Shown here in pieces: positions 16,980 to 57,964 of a DNA stretch of 57,964 nucleotides; positions within the stretch are counted from its first letter, which is position 1; each line of letters begins with the position of its first letter. A program made the position numbers and the translations under genes. The DNA comes from a virus: the IMG/VR virus record IMGVR_UViG_3300045988_085825; one strand, 5' to 3'. The notes under the pieces are model-generated. The model was not told the origin of the DNA and did no database searches. It saw only the letters and a list, made by a program, of their open reading frames with translations.

Positions 16980-17096
16980 ATACTCTACCTCCTACAAATA
17001 GACTCCTACATTTATGAAAAACAACTGGCAGGCGGTGTAGGATTTCCGCTTTTCGTGTTGCAATCACTAGCCAGTTGGTTTTACCAATTTCAGACA

Positions 17097-22759: not shown

Positions 22760-23019
22760 AGGAAGTCGAGCTTAGAGAAGACGAATATGTCTGCATCAGA
22801 AAAGACACATACGACAGACTTCTTGACATCGAAACAAGAGTTGATGTTCTTGTTGATTTACTGGCAGCAGATAAGCATGTCGATGTAGAGCTGGAATTGA
22901 GGATTCTTGGAACAGAATTAGCAATCACAACAGCAAATGAGATAAAAGCTGAAAGGGAGAGGGAATATGAAGCTTATAAAAATGGTTCTTCGCAACTTCA
23001 TGGCGTATCTGGAAGCTGA
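22756..23019 (+). CDS. Hypothetical protein
   Basis: 87-aa acidic ORF. Confidence 0.45.
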   Translation: MKEVELREDEYVCIRKDTYDRLLDIETRVDVLVDLLAADKHVDVELELRILGTELAITTANEIKAEREREYEAYKNGSSQLHGVSGS

Positions 23020-24895
23020 AATTGATTTTTCAGATATTACTAAAATTTCTGGAAGGAACGGAGCTGGAAAGTCCAGTATTGCAAGCGCATACACATGGGT
23101 GCTTTTTGACTGCGACTACAATTTGAAAAGCAGTCCGGCAGTCCGTAGGGAAGTTGACGGGGAACCGGTAATGGATTCTGATGTAGAAGTAACACTGGTT
23201 TTTGGTATGGATGGGAAAGAAATTTCCATGCGAAAGGTACAGCACCGGACGATCAGCAAGGACGGAGCATCTTACAAAGATGATAATAAATATTTTATCA
23301 ATGATGTTCCAAAGAAAAAAGCTGAATTTGAATCATATCTTGGAATTGATATGGGACTTTTGAAAAGCTGCTCGAATCCGGAAGCTTTTTTAGTAAAAAA
23401 AGCAGATGAAATGAGAGCATATTTGTTTTCTCTATCAAAAGAATTTTCGGATTTGTATGTTTGCCGGGAGAACGAAAGCCTACATGGACTGGCAGAAAAG
23501 CTGAAAGATTATTCAGTTGAGGAATTATCTGCCATGAATAAGAAAAAGAAATCGGATATTGAGAAAGAGCTTCCGGTTCTGGACGGACAGATTAAGGAAA
23601 AAGAACGAGACATCAAGTTGAAATCCGACATTGATGTATCTGATCTGGAATTGCAGAGAAATACATTGAAAGAACAGATTGCAGAGAATCTGAAAAAACA
23701 GGCTGATAGTCAAAACATTTTGAAAGATTATGAATCTGCGACTGCCGGAATTATGGAGCTGAAATTCAAACTGTCAGATATGCAGAATCAGGCGAATAAT
23801 GCTCTTTCTGAAAAAGTCAGGGAAATCAGGAGCGAGATTTCAGAAAAAGAAAGAGACAAGAGAAACATGGAAATCAAATCCGATGATTGCAGCAGAAATG
23901 TTAGGCTTTTGACGGCTTCCGTTAAAAAGCTGTCTGAGGAAAAACAAAATCTTGCAAATCTGTGGAAGCAAGAGAAAACCAGAGTTTTTGATGAAAGTAG
24001 CACCGTATGCGTGTACTGCGGGCAGGAATATCCAGAGGACAAGAAAGAACAGCTCCGGTCAGAGTTCGCTGTCAGAAAAGAAGCTGAGTTAAAGCGGATT
24101 ACTGATAAAGGAATGTCGCTGAAAAAGACGATTGAAGAAGATGAACAGGAAGTCGAGAAACTGAATGATTATTTGAAAGAGGCAACTGAAGATATAAGAA
24201 ATATTGAAGAAGAGATTCGGTTTCTCAGAGAAAAAGAAGCAAAAATTCCGGTTGCTGCGGATATTTCAGGTAATGAAGAATATAAGAAAATCCAGAACCA
24301 GATTACTGAAAAGGAAAAGTACCTGGAACAGTTTGGAAACGCTTCTGATCTGAAAGAACAGCTCAGACAAGAAGAATCGAATCTGAACGAGCAGCTGAGA
24401 ACCTGCGAACAGAAAATTGCACAGTCGGATACTTCAGCAGAAGAAGAACGACTGGAAGAACTGAAAGCAAGAAAGCTTGACTTGGGGCAGAAAAAGACGG
24501 ATGCAGAGCATATACTTGACCTTCTGGCAGAACTGGAAAAGAAGAAAAATGAGCTGCTTTCCGATGAAATCAACAGCCATTTTGGACTGGTTAAGTGGAA
24601 GTTGTTCGAGAATGCAAAGAACGGAAATTATAAATCTGCATGCATTCCACAGGTTGATGGAAAGTCCATTCTGACCACCATAAGCAATAAGGGAAACCGG
24701 ATTCTCGGAAAACTGGATATTTGCCGGAGCATCCAGAAAATCGAAGTAATTTCAGTGCCGATCTGGTTGGATGATTGTGAGTCGTTGGACTCTGAAAACC
24801 AGAAGAAGGTTATTGATATGGTGGACGGACAGCTGATTATGCTGATCGTAAATGATGGAAAAGAATTAAAAGTGGATGGGGAGCACTATGAATGA
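22967..24895 (+). CDS. SMC/Rad50/SbcC-like ATPase with central CxxC hook
   Basis: Walker A GRNGAGKSS, a long coiled coil, the mid-coil VCVYCGQEYPE, and the C-terminal IWLDDCESLD. Confidence 0.8.
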   Translation: MKLIKMVLRNFMAYLEAEIDFSDITKISGRNGAGKSSIASAYTWVLFDCDYNLKSSPAVRREVDGEPVMDSDVEVTLVFGMDGKEISMRKVQHRTISKDGASYKDDNKYFINDVPKKKAEFESYLGIDMGLLKSCSNPEAFLVKKADEMRAYLFSLSKEFSDLYVCRENESLHGLAEKLKDYSVEELSAMNKKKKSDIEKELPVLDGQIKEKERDIKLKSDIDVSDLELQRNTLKEQIAENLKKQADSQNILKDYESATAGIMELKFKLSDMQNQANNALSEKVREIRSEISEKERDKRNMEIKSDDCSRNVRLLTASVKKLSEEKQNLANLWKQEKTRVFDESSTVCVYCGQEYPEDKKEQLRSEFAVRKEAELKRITDKGMSLKKTIEEDEQEVEKLNDYLKEATEDIRNIEEEIRFLREKEAKIPVAADISGNEEYKKIQNQITEKEKYLEQFGNASDLKEQLRQEESNLNEQLRTCEQKIAQSDTSAEEERLEELKARKLDLGQKKTDAEHILDLLAELEKKKNELLSDEINSHFGLVKWKLFENAKNGNYKSACIPQVDGKSILTTISNKGNRILGKLDICRSIQKIEVISVPIWLDDCESLDSENQKKVIDMVDGQLIMLIVNDGKELKVDGEHYE

Positions 24896-25428
24896 CAGAT
24901 ATTTTGTAGAACGACAATTCAAGCATATGGGATATGAATGTGTTGTTACATTCGGAGTGTTAGGGCATAGATGCGGATATGTTGGTATTCCTAAAACGCA
25001 CTCTTTATATGGAAAAACATTGTTCTGATTACTTGGAAATCAAAAAGAAAGATTTAGTAGATAGAGAGATAAGCGGAATTTTTCCTTTACTGTGTGCTTG
25101 TTTCGATGAAGATGAAAGACTAAAAATTGAAGCATATTTCCAATGTCACGGCGGTATTACCTTTGCAGGCGGCGGTAAAAACTCAAGCTATCCGATTGAA
25201 AGTGATTTATGGTGGTTTGGCTTTGACTGTGGACATTGTGACGATGGGAAAGAATTGGAACTTGCCTATGAAAGATTTCCTAATTATAGAAAAAGTCTTT
25301 CTATGCAAATTGAGATTGAAAGTAAATTTCATATTGATGGTTTAATTGTTCGCACAGAAGAATATGTGGCAGAAGAGTGTAAGAAATTAGCGGAGCAGTT
25401 AAAAGCGTTTGAAGAAAGTGAGGAGTAA
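24888..25428 (+). pseudogene. Conserved phage gene split by a frame change at an A5 run
   Basis: A 46-codon ORF starts at ATG 24888, which overlaps the upstream stop by 8 nt. It ends at 25028, and the rest continues in the +1 frame from the A5 run at 25013..25017 (CHGGITFAGG...WWFGFDCGHCDDG). Confidence 0.55.
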
Positions 25429-25430
25429 AA

Positions 25431-26030
25431 ATGAGTAAAGCATTGGATATGGCAAGGAAACTGGTTAAGAAGCTGGAAGAAGAGGAAAAACAGTCGAAAG
25501 TGCAGCTTTCAACTTTGAATCCGGGAGATGTATTCAAAATTGGAGAGCATGATTTTATTGTACTGACGCAGTACAGAGAGGAAACGGCAGTAATTTCCAA
25601 AGGATTCATGGCTGAAAATGTGAAATTTGATGAGGATTCGAGAAACTATAAAGAGTCAAATCTGAAAAAGGTTATCGAAAATCTGATCCAGCCGGTTATT
25701 GAGAAGGAAGTCGGATCAAAAAACCTTATTGAGCATGAGGTTGATCTGACAAGTGTAGATATGCAGGACGAATTAGGAAGAGATAGATGCAAAGTCAGAC
25801 CTATAACATTTGATGAAGCACGACAGTATAACGATTTACTGGTTAATAAAAACCTTAATGATTGGTGGTGGACATGCACACCTTGGAGCACAGAAGACAG
25901 AGGATGGAAATATTCAATTGCCGTTGTTGCTCCGACCGGCATTATCTACGACAACGATTGCGATTTCAGCCGCGGTGTTCGCCCGTTTTGTATCTTAAAA
26001 TCTAATATCTTTGTATCGAAGGGAGAATGA
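25431..26030 (+). CDS. DGR target protein (DUF6273-like C-type-lectin-fold candidate, recall)
   Basis: 199 aa. The C-terminus WWWTCTPWS...VVAPTGIIYDNDCDFSRGVRPFCI carries the VR. Confidence 0.8.
   Translation: MSKALDMARKLVKKLEEEEKQSKVQLSTLNPGDVFKIGEHDFIVLTQYREETAVISKGFMAENVKFDEDSRNYKESNLKKVIENLIQPVIEKEVGSKNLIEHEVDLTSVDMQDELGRDRCKVRPITFDEARQYNDLLVNKNLNDWWWTCTPWSTEDRGWKYSIAVVAPTGIIYDNDCDFSRGVRPFCILKSNIFVSKGE
25918..25994 (+). repeat. DGR variable repeat (VR)
   Basis: 65/77 identity to 26534..26610. All mismatches but one correspond to adenines in the other copy. Confidence 0.85.
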
Positions 26031-26814
26031 AAATGGGATTAACAATGAAAGCATTGCAGGAACAGATTGATGTGTTAAAAAAGAAATGGAAGAGCTGAGA
26101 AGCGGCCAGAAAGTAGAATGCAACAAGAAATTTTCCAAATTTCTTACTATTGGTGAAACATTTGAACTGGCGGGAGTTAATTGGAAGATTATTGATATCA
26201 CAAGTGACGGTCATGTTTGCCTGTCTGATTCTATAGGTGAAATGAAATTCAGCTCTGAAAACAATGACTGGAGAACCAGCAATCTTCGGAAGTATTTGAA
26301 TGAAGAATTTTTGAAAAAGATTGAATCAGAAATCGGAGCAGGTAATCTGATAGGATTTGAAAGAAATCTTCTTTCTTTGGACGGCCAGACGGAGTACGGA
26401 ACCTGTGATGATAAAGTGTCACTTTTGACAGTGGATGAGTACCGGAAATACAGAAGGCTGATTCCAAATACAGGTGATTGGTTCTGGTTGATTTCTCCGT
26501 GGAGTACACCTTGCAATGATTTCAAAAACAGTGTTACCGTTGTTGCTCCGACCGGCAATATCAACAACAACAATTGCAATAACAGCAACGGTGTTCGCCC
26601 ATTCTGTATCAAACAGATAGTTAGAGTAGGCAGTAAGCCGAAATCAGAAAAAGATACAAAAAAGTGTATGACCTTCCCGAATAGGGTAAATACAAAGGAA
26701 TTTTTACAATGGATAAAGATGTTATATGCAGCTATGAAAATCTGTATAAGGCATACCGGAAGGCTAAAACTGGCAAAGGTTTTAATGGAAGCTGTGCAAA
26801 ATTTCAGACTATGA
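26027..26814 (+). CDS. Paralogue of the DGR target carrying the TR; needs a -1 shift at A AAA AAG
   Basis: The start (ATGA-coupled 26027, or ATG 26033 after GGGAG) opens a 21-23 codon frame. The heptamer AAAAAAG at 26077..26083 leads into the long ORF tracked from 26086. Confidence 0.55.
26534..26610 (+). repeat. DGR template repeat (TR)
   Basis: Adenine-rich, reading G N I N N N N C N N S N G in frame. It lies 98 nt upstream of the RT start. Confidence 0.85.
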
Positions 26815-27734
26815 ATCTGGAAGGACTTCACTTATTGAAAGAACAACTGGAAAATCAGACATACCGGTTGAATCCGTACAACGAATTTAAGGTTTACGAA
26901 CCGAAAGAAAGAGTGATTAAATCGTGTTCTTTCAAAGACAAAATAGTCCAGCATTGTTTATGTGATGAAATTCTGCATCCTGCATTAAAGGATCGTTTTA
27001 TCAGTACGAATTATGCCGGGCAGCAGGGGAAAGGTACTCATTTTGGAATGGATTGCTTGAAAGAGCAAATGATTGATTTTTATGAAGAACATAGACTTGA
27101 TGGCTGGATTCTTAAATGTGACATTAAAAAGTTTTTCTACCAGATAGACCATGAGATCCTAAAAAGAATTGTTGACTATCACTTTCCAGATGAGTACACC
27201 AAATGGTTGAATCACCTGTTTATTGACAGTACAGAAGGTTTGGGGCTTCCACTCGGGAATCAAGTAGCTCAGGTATATGCACTTCTGATGCTAGATGGTA
27301 TGGATCACTTCATTACCGAAACACTTGGAATTTCCAGATATGGAAGATACATGGATGATTTTTACCTGATTTATACAGATAAAGAGTATTTGAAGTTTTG
27401 CTTGGAGCAGATTCGAGATTTTCTTGGAAGTCTGGGACTTGAATTGAATGGAAAGACACAGATTGTCCCATTCAAATGCGGAATAGCATTTACAGGTTTT
27501 CATCACTACGTAACATTGGACGGAAAATACATAAGAAAATTGAGCGGCACAAACAAACGAAAGATGCGTAAGAAAATCAGGAAATGGTCAGAACTGATTA
27601 GGTCCGGGAAAATGACGGAAGAAAAATTTTTTGAGAAGTACAACGCTTGGAAAAACCATGCATTACATGGAAATTGCATTAAATTGTGCCACTCGATGGA
27701 TTTATATGTAAAAGAATTATTGGAGGAAAAGTAA
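26709..27734 (+). CDS. DGR reverse transcriptase
   Basis: 341 aa with a YMDD box (GRYMDDFYLI) and the DGR-type motif LPLGNQVAQVYALLML. Confidence 0.9.
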   Translation: MDKDVICSYENLYKAYRKAKTGKGFNGSCAKFQTMNLEGLHLLKEQLENQTYRLNPYNEFKVYEPKERVIKSCSFKDKIVQHCLCDEILHPALKDRFISTNYAGQQGKGTHFGMDCLKEQMIDFYEEHRLDGWILKCDIKKFFYQIDHEILKRIVDYHFPDEYTKWLNHLFIDSTEGLGLPLGNQVAQVYALLMLDGMDHFITETLGISRYGRYMDDFYLIYTDKEYLKFCLEQIRDFLGSLGLELNGKTQIVPFKCGIAFTGFHHYVTLDGKYIRKLSGTNKRKMRKKIRKWSELIRSGKMTEEKFFEKYNAWKNHALHGNCIKLCHSMDLYVKELLEEK

Positions 27735-27736
27735 TT

Positions 27737-28483
27737 ATGGCAGATACACAGGTAGCAGTAACAGAGGAAAAGAAAGAAGTATCAAGAAATAAAGTGACGG
27801 ATTACAGTCTTGGAATTTTTGGAACGTCAGATAACTTCATTATGGCTATGCAGATGGCAAAAGCATTGTCAAGTTCAACGATAGTGCCACAAACGTTCCA
27901 GAGAAACGAAGCGAATTGTCTGATTGCCATTGAGCAGGCGCAGAGATTACACGTAAGTCCACTTATGGTAATGCAGAATCTCAATGTGATTCAGGGAAGA
28001 CCGTCATGGAGTTCCAAGTTTTTGATTGCTGCGATCAATAACAGCGGAAAATTTGATACAGAATTACAGTTCGAGGAGAAGAAGGACAAGGATGGAAAGC
28101 CATTTTCTTGCACAGCATGGGTAATGAAGAATGGTAGAAAAGTTGAAGGAATGACGGTTGACATGGACATGGCGAGAGCAGAGGGATGGCTTAGCAAAAA
28201 CGGAAGCAAATGGAAAACCATGCCACAGCTGATGCTTCGTTACAGAGCGGCATCTTTTTTTTCCAGTCTTAATTGCCCGGAACTGACAATGGGTCTGTAC
28301 ACAAAAGAAGAGATTATTGACGGTGATTTCAAAGAATACAAGATTGAAGATGTACAGGAGCAGGCTCATGAAGAGATCGTTAAGAATGCAAATTCTATGG
28401 ATTTTGAACCGGAAGAAACTGCTGGAACAGTTACCGAACCGGACGGGCAGCAGGCAATGCCGGAGTTCATGCAGGAGGGATAA
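27737..28483 (+). CDS. recT: RecT-family single-strand annealing protein
   Basis: Start at ATG 27737 after GGAGG. The pattern ANCLIAIEQAQRLHVSPLMVMQNLNVIQGRPSWSSKF is typical of RecT. Confidence 0.85.
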   Translation: MADTQVAVTEEKKEVSRNKVTDYSLGIFGTSDNFIMAMQMAKALSSSTIVPQTFQRNEANCLIAIEQAQRLHVSPLMVMQNLNVIQGRPSWSSKFLIAAINNSGKFDTELQFEEKKDKDGKPFSCTAWVMKNGRKVEGMTVDMDMARAEGWLSKNGSKWKTMPQLMLRYRAASFFSSLNCPELTMGLYTKEEIIDGDFKEYKIEDVQEQAHEEIVKNANSMDFEPEETAGTVTEPDGQQAMPEFMQEG

Positions 28484-28484
28484 G

Positions 28485-28760
28485 ATGAGAGTAATTTCGC
28501 AGGATGGAACGATTGATGTTCCGTATGAAAATTTTGTATTTGGAATAACTTTAGATAATTATATATCGGCGGTTATAAATACAGCAGTAAGACCAACTGA
28601 AGTCGTGAATGGAATTATGGCTAAATATTCATCCAGAGAAAAAGCACTGAAATCCATGGAAATGCTGAGAAAAGCATGGTTAGGAGAAAGTGTAGAGTTT
28701 GAAAACGGATTTTACCATAAAAATTGCGTTTTCCGGTTTCCGGCAGACGATGAGGTGTAA
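28485..28760 (+). CDS. Hypothetical protein
   Basis: 91 aa, with an internal ATG after GGAGGGA. Confidence 0.5.
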   Translation: MRVISQDGTIDVPYENFVFGITLDNYISAVINTAVRPTEVVNGIMAKYSSREKALKSMEMLRKAWLGESVEFENGFYHKNCVFRFPADDEV

Positions 28761-28762
28761 GT

Positions 28763-28972
28763 ATGACTCTTAAAGAACGGGTGATCGTAGAAGCCTACAC
28801 AGGTTACTGTATGACAACAGGCGAGGAAAAAGAAGAACTCTATAAATACATAGCAAATACTATGGGCAGACCGATTTTTTCCCATGAACTTGCAGATGAA
28901 GAAATCATAAGCGAGTTGCATGATAAAGTTAAAACGGATTTTATCAGGCTTTGCAGAGGAGAGGATGTGTAG
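28763..28972 (+). CDS. Hypothetical protein
   Basis: 69 aa, GAGGTG RBS. Confidence 0.5.
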   Translation: MTLKERVIVEAYTGYCMTTGEEKEELYKYIANTMGRPIFSHELADEEIISELHDKVKTDFIRLCRGEDV

Positions 28973-28974
28973 GT

Positions 28975-29289
28975 ATGAGACAGAATCCATGCAGGTATTG
29001 CTCATCGTCAGTGGATATAAAAGGGAAGCATTTCGCAGGTTTTTCGGAAAAATGTTGTGAATGTGATTACAGGAAGCAACACATGGAATATCTGAAAAAG
29101 AATCGGAAATTTGAGGAAGGCGAACCAATAACAAGCCTTGAAGAATTGCTGAAACAGGAATGGGTTATGTGGTATCACAACACAAAGCATATTGAAGTGA
29201 TTAAGCATACTCAACTTTCAACCGTTTTGATATGGCTTGATAAGGGTGCTTTTCACAAGACTATCAGGAAGGAAAGCGAGGTGATGTAA
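28975..29289 (+). CDS. Cys-rich hypothetical protein
   Basis: Start at ATG 28975. Contains CRYC...CCECDY. Confidence 0.5.
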   Translation: MRQNPCRYCSSSVDIKGKHFAGFSEKCCECDYRKQHMEYLKKNRKFEEGEPITSLEELLKQEWVMWYHNTKHIEVIKHTQLSTVLIWLDKGAFHKTIRKESEVM

Positions 29290-30016
29290 TGCTCAAACTG
29301 TTATGTTGCGGAACCGGAAGTTCTGGAAATTCTTATGCGCTTAAAACAGGAACGGAAACACTTCTGCTTGATGCAGGAATGCCGATTAAGGATATTAAGA
29401 GAATGTGCGGATGGAATGTGAGGGACATTTCCGGCTGTGTTGTAACTCATGAGCATGGTTAGGAGACCATAGCAAATCGATGAAAGAATTAGAAGCAATG
29501 GGAATGCCTGTATTTGCTCCGTATAGAGATGATATCGGTGCGAAATTCAAAGGCAGATGGAAAATCAGAGCATTTAATTTGACCGATTTAAACGGCAAAT
29601 GGACTCATACAAACGGTGATGGATCTGAATGCCAGTGTTACGGCTTTTGGATTCAACACCCGGAGATGGGGACAATGATTTACGCAACTGACACAGAGTT
29701 GATTAAGTGGCGGTTCAAAAATGTCAATCACATTCTTCTAGGAGTAAATTATGACCCGGAAGTGGTGTCTGGTGATGACGCAAAGAAAAACCATGTTGTC
29801 CGTGGACACATGAGCATTGATACGGCTTGCGACTTTGTAAAAGCCAATGTGTCAGATCAGTTGCAGAACGTGATTATGTGTCATTTATCAAGTGAAAATG
29901 CCGACAAGGATAGTTTTATAGAGAAAATGAATAGAACCGTTCCAAACGTCAATGTGTGCGTTGCGGAGCCTGGCATGGAATTAAAATTAAGAAATCCGGG
30001 CGAATGCCCGTTTTGA
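29289..30016 (+). pseudogene. MBL-fold metallo-hydrolase split inside the HxHxDH motif
   Basis: The N-fragment ends ...VVTHEHG-TAG at 29462. The next frame continues GDHSKS... The 5 extra nt TAGGA lie at 29460..29464. Confidence 0.7.
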
Positions 30017-30266: not shown

Positions 30267-30695
30267 GTGATTTTAACAGGTAGATTCGCGAAAGACCATG
30301 ACGTTAGATACTCAAACGGAGAGAAAACAACTGCTGTTGCGAGATTTACTCTGGCAGTAGACAGGAGATTCAAAGGTGATGGAAATCCGACAGCTGATTT
30401 TATCAACTGTGTAGCGTTCGGAAAATCCGGGGAGTTTATCGAAAAATATTTCCGTAAAGGTATGAAAGCTAATATTTGCGGACGGATTCAGACCGGTTCT
30501 TATACGAATAAGGACGGAAACAAGGTCTACACTACAGATGTTCTGGTGGAAGAGATTGAGTTTGGCGAAAGTAAGAACAGCAATCAGCAGAGCGCAGCTC
30601 CGGCTAATCCAAATAATGCAGTTAATCCAATGACTGATGAAAATGGTTTCATGAACATCCCAGATGGAATTGACGAAGAGTTACCGTTTGCTTGA
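30267..30695 (+). CDS. ssb: Single-stranded DNA-binding protein
   Basis: OB-fold pattern VILTGRFAKDHDVRYS...FINCVAFGK and an acidic tail (DEELPFA). GTG start. Confidence 0.85.
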   Translation: MILTGRFAKDHDVRYSNGEKTTAVARFTLAVDRRFKGDGNPTADFINCVAFGKSGEFIEKYFRKGMKANICGRIQTGSYTNKDGNKVYTTDVLVEEIEFGESKNSNQQSAAPANPNNAVNPMTDENGFMNIPDGIDEELPFA

Positions 30696-30711
30696 TAGAG
30701 AGGGTGAGAAA

Positions 30712-31404
30712 ATGAAAAAATTTGAACTCACAGCAGAATATGTGACTAATATTTTTGGAAAGAAATTATTTAGAATCAAGGCTCTTGTAGAATTTGGAAT
30801 TGTGAAAGAAGGAGAACTCGGAGGATTTGTAGAGAAAGAAAGTAACATTGATGATGACGGCAATGCATGGGTCTCAGGAAATGCACAAGTTTTCGGCAAT
30901 GCAAAGATCTCCGGCAATGCACAAGTCTATGGAAATGCAAAGGTTTTCGGGAATGCATGGGTCTACGGGAATGCATGGATCTCTGGAAATGCACAGGTCT
31001 ATGGAAATGCATGGATCTCTGGAAATGCACAGGTCTATGGAAATGCATATGTCGCTGGAAATGTACAGATATCCGAAAATGCACAGGTCTACGGAAATGC
31101 ATGGATCTCTGGAAATGCACAGGTCTACGGAAATGCATGCGTCGCCGAAAATCTGGATTATGCAATAGTAGGAGGGTTTGGCAGTGAGCAGCAGACAATT
31201 ACATTCTTCTGCCAGAAAGACGGATCTGTGGGAGCCAAATGCGGATTCTTTTACGGAACACTGGAAGAATTTCGAGAAAAAGTACTGGAAACTCATGGGG
31301 AAAGCAAATACGCGCGGGAATACCTGATGATTGCTGATCTGATAGAATTACATTTTGCAGGAGGCTGTGATGGCAATGATAAAGACAACCATTCATGTCT
31401 GTAA
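30712..31404 (+). CDS. Hexapeptide-repeat (beta-helix-like) protein
   Basis: About 16 consecutive GNAxVx/GNAxIS hexads. Start at ATG 30712. Confidence 0.6.
   Translation: MKKFELTAEYVTNIFGKKLFRIKALVEFGIVKEGELGGFVEKESNIDDDGNAWVSGNAQVFGNAKISGNAQVYGNAKVFGNAWVYGNAWISGNAQVYGNAWISGNAQVYGNAYVAGNVQISENAQVYGNAWISGNAQVYGNACVAENLDYAIVGGFGSEQQTITFFCQKDGSVGAKCGFFYGTLEEFREKVLETHGESKYAREYLMIADLIELHFAGGCDGNDKDNHSCL
30859..31152 (+). repeat. Tandem 18/36-bp coding repeats
   Basis: The unit GGAAATGCACAGGTCTATGGAAATGCATGGATCTCT is repeated with variants. All six frames are open here. Confidence 0.8.
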
Positions 31405-45984: not shown

Positions 45985-46061
45985 GTTTTCCCTTTCTAGC
46001 CTACCATCATCAGAGCCGGGAGGCTGTCCCACGGCTGACGCCCTCACGGGCGTTTCGGCTG

Positions 46062-49795: not shown

Positions 49796-49868
49796 TGGGG
49801 TATCGCCAAGTGGCTAAGGCACAGGATTTTGACTCCTACATTCGCCGGTTCAAATCCGGCTATCCCAG
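49796..49868 (+). tRNA. tRNA-Gln (anticodon UUG)
   Basis: Hand-folded cloverleaf: acceptor TGGGGTA/TATCCCA, T-arm GCCGG-TTCAAAT-CCGGC, anticodon loop TTTTGAC. Closely resembles bacterial tRNA-Gln. No encoded CCA. Confidence 0.85.
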
Positions 49869-50160
49869 TTTGGGAGTTGCCGCTCCCAGAAACCATATGG
49901 CATGTTTTTCATATAGTTTCTCCTTTTAAGACCCACTAGCGGAAAGCTGATTAAAGAGCCATCGCACGGCTCGGTGGGTTTTGGGTTTCGCTGCGGTAGT
50001 TACCCGTGGATTTCATCATTCCCTGTACAAAAGAATCGCAGCAGGCGATTGTATCAAAAGTGTGGTGCCTTGGCGCAATCGTCTCAGTTCGCCGTCAACG
50101 TAAAGGCTGGCAGGTGCTTGCATATCACCTAAAACGTCATGGAGCTGACATATGCAATTT

Positions 50161-50232
50161 TGGAACATAGCTCAGTGGTAGAGCTTCCGGCTTATATCCG
50201 GAGAGTCCCGGGTTCGATTCCTGGTGTTCCAA
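50161..50232 (+). tRNA. tRNA-Ile (anticodon UAU)
   Basis: Acceptor TGGAACA/TGTTCCA, D-arm GCTC-AGTGGTA-GAGC, anticodon arm TCCGG-CTTATAT-CCGGA, T-arm CCGGG-TTCGATT-CCTGG. Confidence 0.8.
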
Positions 50233-50301
50233 TTTTCTTTTGACAGCACATCAAGCTCATGGTGATGCTCTATCCCGAATTTTGAAATGGAGGGGAAGAA
50301 A

Positions 50302-57909: not shown

Positions 57910-57964
57910 GGCTGTTTTTATTTTATAAAAATTCGCAAAGTTGTGAGCGTAAAAATCAACAATG
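57910..57964. repeat. Terminal direct repeat, copy 2
   Basis: Identical to nt 1-55. Confidence 0.95.

Follow-up and report, generated by a model that had tools for sequence, protein, structure and literature searches.

The 57,964-nt stretch of viral DNA analyzed here (IMG/VR record IMGVR_UViG_3300045988_085825; hereafter the window) contains a diversity-generating retroelement (DGR), in which a reverse transcriptase (RT) gene lies downstream of a template repeat (TR) and of a target gene ending in a variable repeat (VR1). The locus is a genuine DGR and belongs to a known gut-phage family. We consider it likely that this DGR of a gut-Clostridia-phage family was inactivated by recombination between TR and the variable repeat of a second target gene (VR2), which would have removed the accessory gene avd together with one strand of an RNA duplex that brackets TR in the relatives. 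The copy in the window is probably a recently disabled DGR. A sequence-only reading of the window, made from the letters and the translated open reading frames (ORFs), had already called the DGR. The call holds, given the adenine-specific mismatches, the RT resembling that of phage BPP-1, and target variation confined to codons with TR adenines. That reading had not seen, however, that the cassette is a deletion derivative with a hybrid TR, from which avd and an RNA segment have been lost.

Repeat pair and adenine bias

The downstream copy (TR, 26534-26610) and the copy within the target gene (VR1, 25918-25994) form a pair of 77-nt direct repeats that disagree at 12 positions. Eleven of these mismatches fall on adenines of the downstream copy, which has 22 adenines in its 77 nt. 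At least 11 of 12 mismatches would coincide with adenines by chance at P=1.1e-6 (hypergeometric). The twelfth mismatch, at 26604, is C versus T. An independent repeat search of the window recovered the identical pair, and an A-tolerant scan of both strands detected no further repeat copy or second VR in the window. In frame, TR reads GNINNNNCNNSNG and VR1 reads GIIYDNDCDFSRG. The match at 65 of the 77 positions, every adenine position listed in the sequence-only reading, its count of 22 TR adenines and its two in-frame translations were all reproduced exactly.

The bias is not peculiar to the window. We collected 80 loci from IMG/VR, whose RTs are 70-99% identical to that of the window, and 30 loci from metagenome-assembled genomes of Clostridia, with RTs that are 53-58% identical. 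A BLAST-anchored tabulation of TR and VR position by position gave 172 TR/VR pairs from 98 related loci, in which 1688 of 1739 mismatches (97%) up to the GC-rich block lie at TR adenines. This corresponds to substitution of 54% of the TR adenines versus 0.7% of the other bases. The re-alignment that had been suggested as a check on the adenine bias thus upholds it in the window as well as in the relatives.

Downstream of the GC-rich block GGTGTTCGCCC, TR and VR1 differ at 26601 and 26604. Position 26601 is G in every VR of the four closest relatives. Across the family it behaves as a mutable adenine (A>G in 61 cases, unchanged in 50, A>T in nine), and counting it among the adenine sites is acceptable. 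The non-adenine mismatches 3' of the block are mostly C>T and T>G in the relatives, a pattern consistent with fixed differences between the initiation of mutagenic homing (IMH) site and its counterpart IMH*. From the end of VR1 there are 36 nt to the stop codon of ORF 25431-26030.

Reverse transcriptase

The RT carries the two motifs that had been noticed at first sight, YMDD at residue 214 and LPLGNQVAQ at residue 180. Its best match among solved structures is 8ub7_A, with 137 bits over residues 4-319, and this entry is the RT of BPP-1 (brt), with 100% identity over the 83 residues checked. Structures of group II intron and retron-type RTs scored at most 44 bits, with E=2e-10 or weaker. The LPLGNQVAQ motif aligns to IPIGSLTSQ of the BPP-1 RT (bRT); as a criterion for the DGR clade we used a motif of the [I/L]GxxxSQ type versus the QGxxxSP of group II and retron RTs. 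Among the NCBIfam models, group_II_RT_mat reached 104 bits against a cut-off of 300 and retron St85 reached 40 bits against 235, and the DRT models stayed far under their cut-offs. An Rfam scan of the window at the gathering threshold found no group II intron or retron RNA family. Judged by its sequence, the RT groups with DGR RTs. The profile search that the sequence-only reading had recommended gives the same answer, with a strong match to phrog_1423 (Table 1) and with the group II and retron models under their cut-offs.

An exact look-up returned no record with an identical RT sequence. The nearest RT of an annotated phage is that of nd12, with 48% identity, followed by nd4, FP_Toutatis and Lelie. 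A megablast search with 24900-28500 found no nucleotide match among the INPHARED phages, where relatives are found at the protein level alone.

Target genes

The first target gene is the sole intact DGR target of the genome. Its product matches Pfam DUF6273 with 21.1 bits, just under the cut-off of 23.5. We found 5014 homologues, of which 116 are full-length and 86-94% identical. These 116 sequences are nearly invariant except at residues 164, 169, 171-176 and 178-181, which are the codons with TR adenines. The residues found there fit randomization of adenines: T/A/S/P at NCC codons (ACC-type), I/V/F at NTC (ATC), S/G/C/R at NGC (AGC) and a broad spread at AAY codons. In total, 12 codons are randomized (eight AAY, two ACC, one ATC and one AGC), which, counted from the genetic code, amounts to a repertoire of about 6.6e11 peptides.

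The second target gene, about 38% identical to the first over the full length, has become a remnant. A -1 frameshift disrupts it, and TR has replaced its own VR2 and 3' end. The N-terminal fragment terminates at 26098, and adding one A restores a continuous ORF that runs through TR and the spacer.

The AlphaFold2 model of target 1, from a nearly invariant alignment of 21 sequences, had a mean predicted local distance difference test score of 42 and was unusable. The fold is therefore assigned from Pfam DUF6273 and from the literature, in which models of DUF6273 have a C-type-lectin-like fold and carry the VR at the C-terminal end of the domain (PMC10743442; bioRxiv 10.1101/2024.10.15.618418). 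Searching PDB sequences with the target-alignment profile returned nothing below E=0.5. The search for a hairpin or cruciform following VR1, such as BPP-1 has, gave nothing better than shuffled sequence (z=-0.37).

Upstream of target 1, the window has an extra segment of about 520 bp (24876-25428), located between an SbcC-like gene and target 1 and carrying a phrog_2164 ORF (149 aa). The segment is absent from the related loci L001-L004 and present in L112. The N-terminal part of the ORF may be encoded in another frame (ORF 24876-25028), which would point to a split gene.

Table 1. Features of the DGR cassette in the window
Feature	Position	Strand	Evidence or description
Target gene 1, 199 aa, DUF6273-type	25431..26030	+	phrog_9958 E=5e-31; Pfam DUF6273 E=3e-4
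VR1	25918..25994	+	11 of 22 TR adenine positions substituted
GC-rich block GGTGTTCGCCC and IMH-like VR1 3' end GTTTTGTATC (TR: ATTCTGTATC)	25974..25994	+	repeat alignment
Target gene 2 remnant, paralogue of target 1	26027..26610	+	Pfam DUF6273 E=1e-9, 38.9 bits
A6 run, target-2 frameshift site	26077..26082	+	A7 in four closest relatives and in L113, L114 (deletion lineage)
Template repeat, read as VR2/TR recombination joint	26534..26610	+	TTACC start of target-2 type; adenine-rich body and 3' end of TR type
TR-RT spacer, conserved across family	26611..26708	+	hairpins 26629-26639, 26676-26686; duplex 3' strand 26663-26674 AGTGTATGACCT
DGR-type RT, 341 aa, intact	26709..27734	+	PDB 8ub7_A E=6e-39; RVT_1 E=2e-17; phrog_1423 E=6e-105

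Organization of the cassette in relatives

The relatives share a canonical order, target 1 (VR1), target 2 (VR2), avd, TR, spacer and RT. Most of the loci have two VRs, about 507 and 1120 nt upstream of TR, in tandem paralogous genes, and in each of the 85 cases scored an unbroken ORF of 170-254 aa spans VR2. An avd homologue, an ORF of 120-123 aa, lies directly upstream of TR in 107 of 107 evaluable loci. In L001, the corresponding 123-aa ORF matches Pfam 23S_rRNA_IVP (E=3.6e-6) and bAvd (E=1.3e-5) over nearly the whole profiles, both below the gathering cut-offs, and on these matches we regard it as an Avd homologue. TR in the relatives follows avd, begins with AAACC and is located 175 nt upstream of the RT, the same distance as in the window.

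The cassette sits among early and recombination genes (SbcC-like ATPase, RecT-like protein, single-stranded DNA-binding protein) and not among tail genes; in the closest relatives, the gene for the SbcC-like ATPase lies upstream of the cassette and the RecT-like gene downstream. Related prophages are present in metagenome-assembled genomes of Oscillospiraceae, Acutalibacteraceae, Ruminococcus and Faecousia, which makes a gut bacterium of the Clostridia the probable host.

Some further observations concern the cassette. The RecT-like gene of the window (27737-28483) starts 2 nt past the stop codon of the RT. A functional coupling between the DGR and RecT was considered and dropped, as only 23 of 106 loci have a homologue of this RecT directly after the RT; other families of annealing proteins were not searched. 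One relative has three VRs for a single TR (L062, 2114-2190). In about a dozen relatives, VR exceeds TR by 3 nt (5 nt in L002) inside the part with AAC repeats (L002, L010, L012, L034, L043, L049, L054, L056, L061, L065, L076, L087 and L106), which could stem from slippage of the RT or from a later change in TR.

Deletion between VR2 and TR

Alignment to L001 reveals where the window departs from this organization. Positions 25415-26610 are collinear with 2198-3395 of L001, from target 1 through VR2, and the window from 26536 onward is collinear with L001 from 3828 onward, that is, from TR on. The overlap of the two alignments is the repeat itself, and the approximately 507 bp between VR2 and TR are absent from the window. 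Because avd and the duplex strand lie between VR2 and TR in all evaluable relatives, the arrangement in the window is derived by deletion. A tblastn search for avd found none anywhere in the circular 57.9-kb genome (best E=0.87). Positions 1-55 equal 57910-57964, an exact 55-nt terminal direct repeat that closes the genome into a circle of 57,909 bp; thus, avd does not simply lie outside the window. The same terminal repeat indicates that the genome was probably assembled on a de Bruijn graph with k=55.

To judge from its composition (Table 1), what appears as TR in the window is the VR2/TR recombination joint at the 3' end of the frameshifted second target. The sequence-only reading had correctly found the two copies to be similar upstream of the repeat only at the level of paralogues. 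The origin of the joint explains this similarity, as the TR copy ends a damaged second target gene.

The identical junction was present in three other assemblies, ERZ1755788 NODE_8701 (A7), ERZ27333685 k113_64704 (A6) and ERZ1755170 NODE_17072 (A6). The second of these is a 30-kb MEGAHIT contig, which equals the window over 23111-29314 and diverges upstream of 23110. We take "k113" in its name to mean that the graph was built from 113-mers, which exceed the 77-nt repeat, so that single k-mers span the whole joint. This contig and the one in ERZ1755170 were located by exact-protein look-ups. A junction-specific pattern had no match in IMG/VR and one match in the metagenome scan, contig OHUN01008701.1 (L111), which is identical to the window over 2252 nt except for its A7 run. 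The first 129 nt of this 2381-bp contig (L111 1-129) do not align to the window and may derive from a chimera at the end of the contig or from a recombination breakpoint within the RT gene. Since the junction occurs with both the A7 and the A6 allele, the deletion came first and the frameshift later. We are highly confident that the deletion is real and not a product of assembly.

RNA duplex bracketing the template repeat

The deleted segment contained more than avd. In the relatives, RNAduplex repeatedly paired the 12 nt just upstream of TR with a segment of the spacer; in L001 the upstream strand is AGGTTATGCGCT and the spacer strand AGTGCATGACCT. Counted in an alignment of 34 sequences, this 12-bp helix is 94.6% paired and has compensatory changes at 9 of its 12 pairs. 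Sliding the partner strand lowers the pairing to 31-45%. Two short hairpins in the spacer covary as well. With the three helices tested as one structure, all 500 shuffles fell short of every observed measure. In the window, the spacer strand and both hairpins are still present, and the upstream strand is deleted. A search of the window for a stretch complementary to 26663-26674 found no substitute partner.

The counterpart of this helix in the Bordetella DGR is the "cPRT Stop" duplex, in which the spacer pairs with a segment of about 20 nt located upstream of TR (bioRxiv 10.1101/2023.10.23.563531). When the avd RNA segment is lacking, the Bordetella DGR gives zero reverse transcription (bioRxiv 10.1101/2023.10.23.563531), and inactivation of avd in the prototype DGR lowers retrohoming to about 1e-9 (PMC12875486). 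As Avd and the upstream RNA segment are required in Bordetella, we infer that the cassette in the window is unable to produce complementary DNA (cDNA); by this analogy, cDNA synthesis most likely fails.

Variation at VR1 and proposed mechanism

If cDNA synthesis fails, VR1 would be frozen at its last diversified state, GIIYDNDCDFSRG. VR1 indeed shows zero differences among five contigs of the deletion lineage, drawn from the four assemblies ERZ27333685, ERZ1755788, ERZ1755170 and ERZ914016 (ERR1293738, PRJEB12449) plus the window, even as other parts of these contigs vary through the A6/A7 indel and through a divergent stretch at 23018-23110. Pairs of avd-carrying contigs with 0-4 differences in the 450-nt upstream flank differ at 8-17 positions of VR1 and at 11-30 positions of VR2. 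Among such flank-matched relatives, 17 of 17 VR1 pairs and 22 of 23 VR2 pairs differ, and their TRs differ at 0-3 positions; the lone VR2 exception is a pair that probably represents one and the same phage. Ongoing diversification is therefore clear in the family at large. Mapping reads to VR1 in the window, as the sequence-only reading had proposed, would probably reveal no polymorphism at adenine sites, although the element is a DGR.

These observations can be combined into the following scenario. In intact relatives, a single RNA would span the segment just upstream of TR, TR itself and the spacer, with the 12-bp duplex bracketing TR. By analogy to BPP-1, the RT and Avd would copy TR into cDNA by cis-priming, misincorporating opposite adenines, and the cDNA would replace the 3' ends of both targets up to the GC-rich IMH, randomizing the 12 codons. 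In the lineage of the window, recombination between VR2 and TR as direct repeats would have excised about 507 bp, taking with it avd, the upstream strand of the duplex and the native 3' end of target 2. The rest of target 2 would thereby have been fused to TR, and the shortening of A7 to A6 would have followed. The RT, the spacer, the TR body and VR1 would have come through the excision intact.

Several points weigh against the loss of activity. The RT shows no decay: compared with four close relatives, its private changes are 11 synonymous and one conservative. Either the deletion happened very recently, or selection still acts on the RT. The idea that selection on the RT had relaxed once the deletion occurred was considered and finds no support in these changes. 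The apparent freezing of VR1 rests on a small sample of five assembled contigs, which may come from related samples or from one cohort. The requirement for Avd and for the duplex flanking TR has been demonstrated for BPP-1 only and not for the family with DUF6273 targets, some catalogued DGRs have no recognizable Avd, and a related phage or prophage residing in the same cell could provide Avd in trans.

Alternative explanations

The absence of decay raises the question of whether the cassette might be intact and active by design, with TR inside a paralogous ORF and no accessory protein needed. This picture is implicit in the sequence-only reading. Such a design would account for the preservation of the RT, the TR body, the spacer hairpins, VR1 and the IMH-like end, and for RT changes of the purifying type only. 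We nevertheless consider it unlikely, because all 107 evaluable relatives have avd and the covarying duplex strand between VR2 and TR, the ORF bearing TR is frameshifted, VR1 is invariant in the deletion lineage versus its rapid turnover in relatives, and the prototype needs both Avd and the upstream RNA segment. It is very unlikely that the avd-less arrangement is still functional, with TR serving as the 3' end of the target-paralogue transcript, either without Avd and the duplex or with Avd in trans. If this were true, the phage would carry a naturally minimized two-component DGR. A weaker form of the same idea would see recombination between VR and TR as a recurrent natural off-switch of phage DGRs.

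The missing segment might instead reflect an assembler that jumped from VR2 to TR and skipped the 507-bp loop. The terminal overlap marks the window as a short-read de Bruijn assembly, repeats such as VR and TR complicate assembly graphs, and the names of two supporting contigs point to a coverage of only about 2x. An artefact is improbable all the same, as the junction recurs in three other assemblies made by two assemblers, one of them MEGAHIT at k=113, and is tied to both the A7 and the A6 allele and so has a history. Moreover, the exact match between VR2 and TR normally extends over only about 20-23 bases at the 5' end, too few for a collapse at k of 55 or above. A collapse would require VR2 to equal TR, which is very unlikely given the proportion of adenines substituted per copy. 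Finally, the two repeats could have arisen with no retroelement activity, if paralogous genes had diverged by mutation or gene conversion beside a retron- or group II-type RT. The two ORFs are true paralogues, and among the NCBIfam models the RT scores best against the one for group II intron RTs. This explanation is extremely improbable in view of the mismatches, which lie almost entirely on adenines of one copy (P ~1e-6) and show the same asymmetry in the 172 pairs instead of spreading over four bases. The group II and retron models also stay under their cut-offs, bRT leads the structural relatives by about 94 bits, and group II intron or retron RNA families are absent from the window. We thus favor the disabling of a formerly intact DGR by the VR2-TR deletion.

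Other features of the genome

The genome encodes structural genes, including an ORF of tape-measure size (1417 aa) and ORFs of terminase and portal size, as well as two tRNA genes on the plus strand, tRNA-Gln(TTG) and tRNA-Ile(TAT), at 49796-49868 and 50160-50233. Two RNA elements were found on the minus strand. A type II hammerhead ribozyme (Rfam RF02276) at 45995-46060 is a full-length match with 46.9 bits against a gathering threshold of 37. An int-alpA RNA motif (RF02996) at 17009-17077, with 51.7 bits against 35.8, lies between minus-strand ORFs and may relate to a temperate lifestyle or to regulation of an integrase region.

ORF 30664-31404, which matches phrog_7964 of unknown function, contains about 19 tandem 18-nt units (30823-31164) encoding hexapeptides GNAxVY/GNAWIS. 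A gene for a hydrolase of the metallo-beta-lactamase fold (29289-30016, phrog_392) is split near 29461 inside its HxHxDH motif. The sequence at the split is CATGAGCATGGT-TAGGA-GACCAT, and removal of 5 nt restores HEHGDH. The interruption is identical in L001 and L003 and is thus not a private error; the gene may be a pseudogene or contain a recoding site.

Comparison with known systems

DGRs with DUF6273 targets have already been described in the phages nd4 and nd12 (Baykov et al. 2023, PMC10743442), in the Faecalibacterium phages Lelie, CP11, Roos and Pioen (PMC11792537) and in Toutatisvirus (bioRxiv 10.1101/2024.10.15.618418), so the element itself is not new. What the window adds is a natural knockout, found in several metagenome assemblies, in which avd and the duplex strand are gone and RT, TR and VR1 are intact. 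Together with the avd-carrying relatives, it offers a natural comparison for the need for Avd and the flanking duplex outside the Bordetella prototype. Being direct repeats, TR and VR can recombine with each other and so delete the DNA in between, and the VR2-TR deletion illustrates one concrete route by which DGRs may be lost. A DGR finder would flag this locus on account of the RT and the TR/VR pair, even though the element is probably inactive. Moreover, the strong covariation of the duplex bracketing TR in DGRs of Bacillota phages supports the proposed conservation of the "cPRT Stop" architecture known from Bordetella.

The element resembles the known gut-phage DGRs with DUF6273 targets in several respects. 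The VR lies at the C-terminal end of a DUF6273 target, often with more than one target per TR, the targets are small single-domain proteins flanked by short helices, the hosts are gut Clostridia, and intact members have the order avd, TR, RT. It differs from them in an RT that is less than 50% identical to that of any annotated phage. In the sub-family of the window, tandem small paralogous targets lie immediately upstream of avd, and the cassette is located among early and recombination genes rather than tail genes. The copy in the window additionally lacks avd, VR2 and the segment upstream of TR.

With the DGR of BPP-1, the prototype composed of mtd, avd, TR and brt, the element shares a homologous RT, adenine-specific mutagenesis, a VR at the 3' end of the target and a GC-rich, IMH-like boundary. 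The relatives of the window also have an Avd homologue and a duplex of upstream segment and spacer analogous to the avd:Sp "cPRT Stop". Unlike BPP-1, in which the target is the tail-fibre protein Mtd, the family has two tandem DUF6273 targets of 199-206 aa, and VR1 of the window is followed by no detectable hairpin or cruciform. A further departure from the prototype is the deletion of avd and of the upstream duplex strand in the window.

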